Part shown: positions 12,001 to 15,000 of the stretch, one piece after another
How positions within the stretch are numbered: the stretch's first letter is position 1
Layout of the letters: the number at the start of each line of letters is the position of its first letter
Assembly (NCBI RefSeq): GCF_003334335.1
Contig: NZ_QOWQ01000008.1
Length of the DNA: 64,000 nucleotides
DNA from: Escherichia coli
GTDB lineage: Bacteria > Pseudomonadota > Gammaproteobacteria > Enterobacterales > Enterobacteriaceae
Reading direction: 5' to 3' (one strand)
Program-made: the position numbers

Positions 12001-15000
12001 CCAGCAGTTCGTCCACCTTTTTACGTGTGCCGCCGTTGCTGCTTATACTGCGTCGAACTTTGACGACATGCAATTTTGCGCGCTGATACCACTCACGCGT
12101 TAACATCGTATCGTGATTGGAGATCAGCACTGGAATATGGCGCTCAACCAGACCTTCGGCGATCTCCGCCAGATGCGCTTGTTGTTCAAGCGTAAAACTG
12201 TTTGTGTGATACGCCGTAAAGTTGGCGGTCGCAGACAGCGGTGCATAAGGCGGATCGCAATAGACGACGGATGCATCATCTGCGCGCGCCATGCTATCGG
12301 CGTAAGACTCACAATAGAAAAAGGCATTCTGCGCTTTTTCAGCGAAGTGATACAACTCTGCTTCCGGGAAATAGGGTTTTTTGTAGCGGCCGAACGGCAC
12401 GTTAAACTCACCGCGCAGATTGTAACGACACAGGCCGTTGTAACCGTAGCGGTTCAAATATAAAAACAGTACCGCCCGACGGAACGGATCCTGGCTTTTG
12501 TTGAACTCTTCGCGGAACTGATAGTAAACCTCGGCGCAATTTGTTTCGGGAACAAACAGCTCGCGTGCGGCCTGTACGTACTCATCAGTACGCATCTTCA
12601 CAATGTTATAGAGACTGATCAGGTCGCTATTGATATCGGCAAGGATATAACGAGAAAAGTCGGTGTTGAGAAACACCGACCCGGCACCTACAAAAGGCTC
12701 AACCAGACATTCGCCCTTGGGCAAATGCCGTTTAATATCATCAAGCAGGGGATACTTGCCCCCTGCCCACTTCAAAAAAGCGCGATTTTTCTTCATGCTG
12801 ACTAACTAATTACACCTTCTCCGGCTGTGGAGAAAGCTCCGACAGCATCCAGCGCTTCAGGCAACTCCCGCAACGATAAACCATTGCGGGAGATAACCTT
12901 GATTACTTCAGATCGGCCTGTACCTGACGCAGCGGTTTCGCCCACGGGTTTTTGGCCTGGACATCTGCTGGCAATGTAGATACCGCTTTTTTCGCCTCTT
13001 CTTTCGAAGCGTACACGCCAGAAACCAGGACATACCACGGCTGACCATTACGCGTCGTTTCATAGACAACGTAGTTTTTCAGATTCTCTTTCTTCGCCCA
13101 ACCGTTCAGGTTGTCGTAGTTAGAGGAACTGCTCAGCTGCAGAGTGTAATGGCTGGACGGTGCCGATTTCAACGAACCAACATTACCTGCGGTCTTCGCC
13201 CCAGCAGCGGGTGTTGCCGTGGTTTGCGCCGGGGATGCCGTCTGTACTGGAGCCGTAGTCGCCGTCTCTTTTGGTGCTGGCGTAGAAGTCGCAGCCGGTG
13301 CCTTCGTGCTCGCCACAGGGGCAGCTGGTTCAGTACGCTTCGGCGTCTGTGCTACCGGCTTCGGCTCCGTTTTCACGGTTGCTTGCGGTTTTTTCGGTTC
13401 AATCACCGCCTGCTGACGAGCTGGGCGCGTAGTGGACGGACGTTCAGCGGTTTGCGTTTTCGCCGTGTCACGCGATGCATTGCCATTGCGAACAGGCGCA
13501 ACCGTTGCGGGTTCAGTCGGCAACGTGGAATTGACCGCCACATTGTTCAGCTGTTGCTGATTTTGTGGCTGGGTCAGCGCATTGTTCAGGTCACCCTGCA
13601 CTTCAACACGTTGTTGACCATCCGTTGCCACCGGGGTTTGCCCTTGAGTCGGCGTAGAAGAGATCGGTGGCAGAGAAACATCCTGCTGAGTATTTTCCGC
13701 AGACGTGGTTCCCGGCGCTGGCTGCACGCCATTCGCCTGATCGGTCGCATTGCCAGCAAGATCAATACTCTTCTCGCCAGACGCGGTTTGATCGCTGGAA
13801 GTGGTCGAGGGGGCTTTTAGCGCAGAACCGATACCGATGATCAACAGCAGTAGAACCAGAATGCCGACGCCCATCATCATATACTGACGAGAAGCGGGTT
13901 TACTGGCTGCTTTTTTGCGCTTACGCGGACGACGCTCTACGCGCTCTTCATCCACGGTTTCATCTTCGGATTCGTCAATTTCTTCTTCGATTTCCGGTTC
14001 CTCATTGCGCTCTTTTTGCGCACGAGTCGGACGGCGATCGTCAGTGTCATCAAGTTCAATATCATCAAAATTGATCTGCGGTTCGCCACGTTCAGTACGC
14101 TCAGAACGTTCAGAAGATTGACGAGAACGACCAGTACGACGATCGCTGGGATCGGGTTTCAGCTCGTCTTCTGGTTTGAATTCATCCATTTAACACCCCA
14201 CTAAAAGGTTAATGCTTACCACGTTGCAATTAACCTGAAGCTAATAGACCGCTTGATAAGCGGCCTGACCTTTCTTGTTGTTACGCTGATTGACAATCGG
14301 CAATGGCGTTAAGAACAAGCTCGTGCGAAACGACGCTGCGAACTTCACTCTTACCAATTGCCAACGGAAGAATTAAGCGCATCTCTCCCGCAAGGACTTT
14401 CTTGTCACGCAGCATATGCGGTAAATACGCCTGCGCGGACATTTCGCGCGGCCCATTGACCGGTAACCCAGCCCGCTTGAGCAGGGTTATAATACGCTGC
14501 GTTTCGGCAGAACTAAACTGCCCGAGACGTTCCGACGTCCGCGCCGCCATCACCATACCCGCAGCGACCGCTTCACCATGTAACCAATTGCCATACCCCA
14601 TTTCAGCTTCAATGGCATGACCAAAGGTGTGTCCCAGATTCAGTAAAGCACGTAACCCGGTTTCGCGCTCGTCGGCGGCGACAACTTCTGCCTTCAGTTC
14701 ACAACAACGGCGAATACAGTACGCCATTGCCGGACCGTCCAGACGCAACAACGCATCCAGATTCTCTTCCAGCCAGTTAAAAAACGCACCGTCAAGAATA
14801 ATGCCGTATTTGATGACTTCTGCCAGCCCCGACGCTAACTCACGCGGGGGAAGCGTTTTCAGACAGTCGAGATCCACCACCACTGAAGCAGGTTGGTAGA
14901 ACGCGCCAATCATGTTTTTACCGAGGGGATGGTTGACCGCAGTTTTGCCGCCAACGGAGGAATCGACCTGCGACAGTAACGTCGTCGGGACTTGAATGAA

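Follow-up and report, generated by a model that had tools for sequence, protein, structure and literature searches.

The damX-dam intercistronic hairpin of Escherichia coli and the adjoining dam leader: structure, distribution and possible roles

The spacer between damX and dam in Escherichia coli encodes a stable RNA hairpin, hereafter H1, which occurs once per genome, lacks the features of a terminator and retains its pairing across species. We infer, tentatively, that H1 may serve as an accessory barrier against mRNA decay or as an insulator, a structure-only module in the damX 3' UTR; a near-neutral relic is almost as likely. In kind H1 is a familiar intercistronic hairpin, confined to one lineage, and the signs that its structure is under selection are weak. 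To judge from conservation, a likelier cis-regulatory region for dam than H1 is the 61-nt leader that adjoins the dam start codon.

Structure and setting of the hairpin

The window, that is, the whole 64-kb stretch of E. coli DNA analyzed here, carries on its minus strand ORFs for trpS, gph, rpe, dam, damX, aroB and aroK. Both gene names that matter most here, dam and damX, agree with the RefSeq annotation of MG1655; adding 3503117 to a window coordinate gives the MG1655 coordinate, which places H1 at 3,515,982-3,516,009, minus strand, in that genome. A 301-nt stretch around H1 is found at 95-100% identity in all 5426 complete E. coli genomes. The hairpin lies between two cistrons of the aroK-aroB-damX-dam-rpe-gph-trpS operon transcript, in a stretch that amounts to the damX 3' UTR. 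Representatives of dam clusters at 50% are found in aroK-aroB-dam operons without damX. The features of the spacer and its borders are the following.

11960-12796, minus strand: dam ORF (ORF call and MG1655 RefSeq gene name)
12797-12902: damX-dam spacer, 106 nt, from the dam start to the damX stop
12859-12899, minus strand: weak outer helix around H1, AGGU (12896-12899) with GCCU (12859-12862), from folding prediction
12865-12873, minus strand: H1 3' arm, UUGCGGGAG, ending 68 nt before the dam AUG and followed by UUGCCUGAAG
12874-12883, minus strand: H1 apical part, UGGUUUAUCG, which adds a U.G and a G-C pair and leaves a 6-nt loop, GGUUUA
12884-12892, minus strand: H1 5' arm on the dam-sense RNA, CUCCCGCAA, beginning 10 nt past the damX stop codon
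12903-12905, minus strand: damX stop codon UAA, given for context
12903-14189, minus strand: damX ORF (ORF call and MG1655 RefSeq gene name)

The initial annotation of this region described a perfect 9-bp inverted repeat at 12865-12892 in a 106-bp spacer, and the sequence and a repeat search agree on this point. The plus strand of the window reads ctcccgcaa-cgataaacca-ttgcgggag, with 9-nt arms (12865-12873 and 12884-12892) that are 100% complementary and 10 nt apart. A hairpin upstream of dam on the minus-strand transcript, also proposed there, is borne out by folding: in that RNA the 9 bp grow by the apical U.G and G-C pairs into an 11-bp stem with 7 G-C pairs. Its folding energy is -19.5 kcal/mol, as against -7.0 +/- 2.3 kcal/mol for 200 dinucleotide shuffles (z = -5.4), none of which folds as well. 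In the ensemble of the whole spacer H1 is fully paired, with pair probabilities near 1, which points to independent folding. The outer helix is a prediction for E. coli alone, and relatives keep it poorly. The reported repeat and its hairpin are therefore confirmed as real.

How unusual such a repeat is depends on the yardstick. The motif CCCGCAA-N4-16-TTGCGGG occurs once in the window versus 0.02 expected. A search for perfect inverted repeats of 9 bp or more with 3-10 nt loops yields 21 hits at 13 distinct sites of the window versus 2.1 in shuffles; since they are about ten times commoner than in shuffles, a lone 9-bp repeat is only moderately unlikely. What marks H1 as more than a chance palindrome is that its pairing is retained across species.

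Distribution and pairing of the hairpin

We took the dam locus from the 80 closest Enterobacteriaceae species representatives and treated the damX-dam spacer as two parts, a proximal one of about 60 nt and a distal one that varies. The proximal part is present in all 80 species. The distal part measures 4-9 nt in 44 species, including those of Enterobacter, Kosakonia, Lelliottia, Leclercia, Atlantibacter and Siccibacter, and 16-20 nt with little structure in 18 more, including Klebsiella, Raoultella, Trabulsiella and Yokenella, so that H1 is evidently dispensable for the operon. Another 18 species have a distal part of 46-120 nt with a strong hairpin.

H1 proper is restricted to Escherichia among these 80 species. 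Alignment reveals a homologous hairpin in the Citrobacter freundii group and in Intestinirhabdus, with an apical part 9-10 nt longer (GTCCCGCAATGG...CCATTGCGGGAC). By this comparison E. coli H1 looks like a deletion derivative whose stem has reclosed: an older, longer hairpin would persist in these two groups, and H1 would be its Escherichia version. Salmonella retains the 5' flank and the 5' arm (GTCCTGCAAT), and its spacer has been rebuilt to 180 nt with other hairpins. Unrelated strong hairpins occupy the position of H1 after the damX stop codon in Phytobacter, Kluyvera and Salmonella. No family in Rfam 15 matches H1, the overlap being noise only (rdlD, 16.3 bits against a gathering score of 50, E = 8.4), and an Rfam scan of the Salmonella, Citrobacter, Intestinirhabdus, Phytobacter and Kluyvera loci gave no relevant match.

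The homologous hairpins were aligned as 12 distinct sequences, drawn from three genera. Every one of the 12 pairs all of the basal 7 bp, and when partners are slid by 1-3 columns as a control, pairing is only 36-71%. The closing pair is C-G in four sequences (K-12-type E. coli), U-A in four (other Escherichia) and G-C in four (Citrobacter and Intestinirhabdus), and two further pairs vary from C-G to U.G only. None of 500 shuffles reaches either the pairing or the covariation score of H1; the covariation itself comes from one pair with three Watson-Crick types and from few independent events, too few for a firm test. Because the U.G wobbles pair on the dam-sense strand only, they point to an RNA structure and away from a DNA cruciform. 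The arms are identical to those of E. coli at 14-17 of 19 positions, compared with an identity of 0.53-0.61 at third codon positions in dam and with 8-9 matches among 17 flank positions (P = 0.007-0.10). Taken as sequence evidence, this is a modest but consistent case for selection, and the H1 stem looks weakly selected.

Within E. coli, the K-12 allele of the 42-nt H1 region is exact in 2979/5426 genomes. The variants are a U-to-G change in the loop, which is thus polymorphic, a change in the 3' flank, U.G to U-A, C-G to U.G, a 1-nt deletion in the 5' flank, and an allele with an A.C mismatch in the stem (323/5426 genomes). Five of these six polymorphisms are neutral for the structure or strengthen it, and every allele examined folds, at -18 to -25 kcal/mol.

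The dam leader and a hairpin within dam

The proximal part of the spacer and the start of dam contain structures of their own, which we list here together with a hairpin inside the gene.

12657-12682: 11-bp hairpin within dam codons 39-48, followed by a U-rich stretch
12797-12857, minus strand: conserved dam leader, outside H1, 61 nt
12814-12837, minus strand: leader hairpin B (GCUUUCUCC/GGAGAAGGU), from folding prediction, probability about 1
12824-12846, minus strand: leader hairpin A (GCUGUCGGAG/CUCCACAGC), from folding prediction, mutually exclusive with hairpin B and P1
12843-12848 with 12795-12800, minus strand: leader helix P1, AUGCUG with CAGCAU, from folding prediction, probability about 0.58

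The 61-nt leader is 100% identical in 5422/5426 E. coli genomes. Across the 80 species its mean pairwise identity is 0.88, compared with 0.90, 0.94 and 0.585 for dam codon positions 1, 2 and 3. In the fold predicted for the E. coli sequence, P1 takes in the AU of the dam start codon, its first two bases; hairpins A and B, each taken alone, are of similar stability (-10.8 versus -11.9 kcal/mol). Among 51 distinct leader sequences, 49 fold hairpin A and 48 fold hairpin B at -5 kcal/mol or better. Some divergent genera have rebuilt one of the two hairpins in a new register: A is kept in Pseudescherichia and in one Atlantibacter species, and in two other Atlantibacter species B is strengthened and A lost. 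Column-wise covariation is absent from A, B and P1 in a sequence that hardly varies, and for this reason the architecture that they form is best regarded as hypothetical. The leader is far more constrained than H1, which would place the cis constraint on dam expression in the leader and not in the hairpin upstream.

A 12-codon uORF lies in the leader, from an AUG at 12846-12848 to a UAA at 12810-12812. The start codon is always ATG, GTG or TTG, and downstream of it each of the three frames runs into a stop. We rejected a conserved uORF peptide: conservation has no 3-nt periodicity, indels of 1-2 nt shift the frame, and AGGA directly abuts the AUG, which also disfavors it. The uORF is absent from the ribosome-profiling smORF table that we searched. 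Translation of the uORF independent of its sequence is possible.

The hairpin within dam displays clear compensatory synonymous changes: two of its pairs occur both as G-C and as A-U, in ratios of 26:23 and 27:15. Forty-three cells are changed on both sides versus 9 +/- 6 in shuffles, and none of 500 shuffles attains its covariation score. No curated Term-seq end is listed at this site.

What the hairpin may do

Published maps of RNA ends in MG1655 bear on several readings of H1. The initial annotation had noted that H1 lacks a T-tract, and indeed none follows it on either strand, the bases 3' of the stem (UUGCCUGAAG) forming no U-rich tract; a promoter and terminator scan likewise called nothing promoter-like or terminator-like at H1. 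H1 resembles intrinsic (Rho-independent) terminators in its GC-rich hairpin, with a stem length and a loop size typical of them, and differs from them in having no U-tract, no curated 3' end and no call in the scan. A 3' end at H1 would fall at about 3,515,978-3,515,982 in MG1655. The curated Term-seq tables of PMC7815308 (supplementary files 1-3; LB at OD 0.4, LB at OD 2.0, and M63) list none at or near it: the sole 3' end between 3,514,000 and 3,516,999 is 3516762, inside damX, and no Rho-termination region is listed in the same interval. In the available part of the RNase-targetome study (PMC10667835), the sites listed fall in rpe, dam, damX and aroB, and none is a processing site in the spacer (35159xx/35160xx). 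The suggestion that H1 is a processing element thus finds no support among the curated ends of the former source or the listed sites of the latter. The annotation had named missing RNA ends nearby, along with an unaltered dam expression upon stem disruption, as findings that would count against a role for H1; the published MG1655 tables list no end near it, which goes part of the way in that direction, although weak ends may lie beyond what these curated tables record. The remaining suggestion, a contribution to stability, can be retained in a milder form: to judge from its sequence, H1 possibly has a modest stabilizing or insulating role.

Our preferred reading, held tentatively, is that H1 acts passively and at the RNA level. 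It would be a local barrier or insulator, slowing 3'-to-5' exonucleolytic decay from the dam leader into damX and also shielding the fold of the conserved leader from whatever happens at the damX stop codon. H1 would be accessory, with dam translation set elsewhere.

Known systems offer partial likenesses. The REP in malE-malF is an example of an intercistronic stabilizer stem-loop. In PMC10667835, which treats E. coli genome-wide, selective RNA processing and stabilization is described as resting on intercistronic stem-loops; H1 resembles these in lying between two cistrons of one operon, in being structure-only and in the upstream protection to be expected, and differs from them in being single-copy (non-REP) and in having no spacer processing site among the sites listed there. 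Stable stem-loops without a U-tract are documented 3'-exonuclease barriers in E. coli according to Dar and Sorek 2018 (PMC6061677), and H1 is like the protective 3' stem-loops described there: stable, GC-rich, right after a stop codon and devoid of a U-rich tract. However, that class is defined by a precise steady-state 3' end below the stem, of which the curated Term-seq tables have none for H1, and it sits at the ends of Rho-dependent or processed transcripts, whereas transcription through H1 must continue into dam. Membership of H1 in the protective or stabilizer class is unproven for this reason, the defining RNA end having been sought in published tables and found absent.

H1 may alternatively be a near-neutral relic, a palindrome inserted after the damX stop in the ancestor of Escherichia, Citrobacter and Salmonella that has since been decaying slowly and without function; this is only a little less likely than the preferred reading. 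Quasipalindrome-associated mutagenesis is established in E. coli, and on this reading template-switch repair within quasi-palindromes would in part explain why the arms remain complementary. A relic would account for the restricted distribution and fast indel turnover, for the Salmonella element rebuilt into a different 180-nt spacer, and for the polymorphism of H1 in E. coli beside a leader identical in nearly every genome; the want of mapped RNA ends at H1, both in curated Term-seq and among the sites listed in the available part of PMC10667835, also agrees with it. It fits less well with arms that are more conserved than flanks and synonymous sites, with a basal stem that is 100% paired and closed by a pair in three Watson-Crick forms, or with an Escherichia stem still continuous after a 10-nt deletion. 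Moreover, the U.G wobbles preserve pairing in the sense RNA only, and template switching would not yield these. That H1 instead reduces read-through from damX to dam, as an attenuator of transcription, a pause signal or a partial terminator, seems improbable to us. A GC-rich stem directly past a stop codon would suit such a role, and the distal gene of the operon is said to be weakly expressed; yet the U-tract is missing, the terminator scan passes over the stem, curated Term-seq has neither a 3' end nor a Rho-termination region there, and most relatives do without H1.

Direct control of dam translation by H1, which the initial annotation had also put forward, is very unlikely. H1 does lie in the spacer upstream of dam, and CUCC/GGAG in the arms of the K-12 type could in principle pair with GGAG/CUCC in the leader, but the hairpin stops 68 nt short of the AUG and, with pair probabilities near 1, folds on its own. 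Other Escherichia alleles read UUCCC...GGGAA and lack both CUCC and GGAG; the element is polymorphic in E. coli and missing from most Enterobacteriaceae, including most species with the almost invariant dam leader. We give equally little credence to H1 as a palindromic DNA operator for a dimeric protein or as one copy of a REP/MITE-type dispersed repeat, in spite of its perfect palindrome and conserved half-sites (CCCGCAA and TTGCGGG). The spacing of the half-sites varies by 9-10 nt between E. coli and Citrobacter/Intestinirhabdus, which is unfit for a protein site of fixed geometry, and we rejected the operator on the ground of this inconstant spacing among homologs. REP/BIME and other enterobacterial dispersed palindromes resemble H1 as short, imperfectly extended intergenic palindromes of variable presence among species. 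Unlike them, H1 is found by blastn (word size 11, E-value limit 10; 42-nt H1 region) at exactly one place per genome in 5426/5426 E. coli genomes, with a single match in the 64-kb window and none in Rfam, and the dispersed repeat was rejected because of this single copy.

The Dam level is critical, as too little or too much Dam leads to mutator and virulence phenotypes, and to our knowledge post-transcriptional control of dam is poorly understood. We may also consider, as a rather unlikely but broader scheme, that dam synthesis in Enterobacteriaceae is set by an undescribed cis RNA system in which P1 and hairpin B in the leader alternate with hairpin A and the covarying hairpin within dam takes part, H1 being a spacer module. 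In such a system P1 would hide the dam start codon and enclose hairpin B, hairpin A would be the open form, and H1, in Escherichia and close relatives, would separate the leader from ribosomes that finish translating damX. In Salmonella, oxidative stress is reported in a 2025 study to induce dam mRNA more than 20-fold with little Dam protein (PMC12455584), a pattern that hints at regulation of dam at the level of translation.

If H1 works as we propose, it would be one more intercistronic stabilizer hairpin, of little weight in itself. What is useful is a negative result that gives a direction: the hairpin that catches the eye and the element that is conserved are two different things. The 61-nt leader and the hairpin within dam are more interesting than H1; being under far stronger constraint, they are the better targets for work on the control of dam.

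A conserved leader upstream of dam

The segment directly upstream of dam is among the features listed below. It is identical in 5422 of 5426 complete E. coli genomes, and across 80 Enterobacteriaceae species its mean pairwise identity is 0.88: a level similar to that of non-synonymous sites in dam and far above that of third-codon positions (0.585). The 61-nt leader has no entry in Rfam. Folding suggests an architecture extending to the dam start codon:

12797-12857, minus: dam leader, 61 nt
12795-12848, minus: predicted leader architecture
12843-12848 with 12795-12800, minus: predicted helix P1 (AUGCUG paired with CAGCAU; probability ~0.58)
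12814-12837, minus: predicted hairpin B (probability ~1), enclosed by P1
12824-12846, minus: predicted hairpin A, mutually exclusive with hairpin B and P1
12846-12848 (AUG) to 12810-12812 (UAA), minus: possible upstream ORF of 12 codons, within 12802-12848

Helix P1, as predicted (probability ~0.58), would cover the dam start codon at its first two bases (AU). Its six core pairs are retained in 48 to 51 of 51 distinct sequences, among which no covariation is observed because the sequence is nearly invariant. No Shine-Dalgarno sequence is found at normal spacing for dam; 16 nt upstream of the AUG there is a strong Shine-Dalgarno-like motif, GGAGAAGGUG, most of which falls within hairpin B.

We also considered whether the leader encodes a conserved peptide. 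The first codon of the possible upstream ORF is only ATG, GTG or TTG across genera, and stops in each of the three frames come after the ORF (UAAUUAGUUAG, 12802-12812). Codon periodicity is lacking in the conservation pattern, and indels change the frame; we therefore reject a conserved peptide product. The 12-codon ORF has no entry in the smORF table that was consulted. In Franconibacter, the upstream AUG and dam share a reading frame and no stop separates them.

Elements within the dam and damX coding regions

Three further elements lie inside the coding sequences:

12657-12682, minus: 11-bp hairpin in dam codons 39-48, GGGUCGGUGUU-UCUC-AACACCGACUU, then UUUCUCGUUAU
13143-13172, minus: sigma-70-like site in the 3' part of damX (TTGAAA, 18-nt spacer, TACACT)
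13645, minus: Term-seq 3' end inside damX (MG1655 3516762)

The hairpin in dam looks like a terminator. Among 63 distinct sequences it displays compensatory synonymous changes, with changes on both sides at three pairs, and its covariation score was reached by none of 500 shuffles. Term-seq lists no 3' end at this hairpin. The 3' end at 3516762, the only curated one in the 3514-3516 kb interval, is classified as internal to damX and not Rho-dependent (PMC7815308). The sigma-70-like site precedes dam by about 350 nt; some dam promoters have been located within the damX coding region (PMC4981707), and this site may be one of them.

The damX-dam junction in other genomes

In a few records of the E. 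coli genome collection the damX-dam junction is present a second time; NZ_CP148133.1, for example, has it in two places. A plasmid record is reported to hold one copy.

In the Phytobacter group (loci L017, L018 and L027) and in Kluyvera (L076), strong hairpins of -20 to -27 kcal/mol, unrelated to H1, the hairpin just after the damX stop in E. coli, occupy the H1 position. The Salmonella loci (L006 and L087) have a 180-nt spacer after the damX stop with several hairpins, and a T-run, still within the spacer, follows one of them. The site bounded by the damX stop on one side and the dam leader on the other seems repeatedly to accept or attract hairpin insertions.
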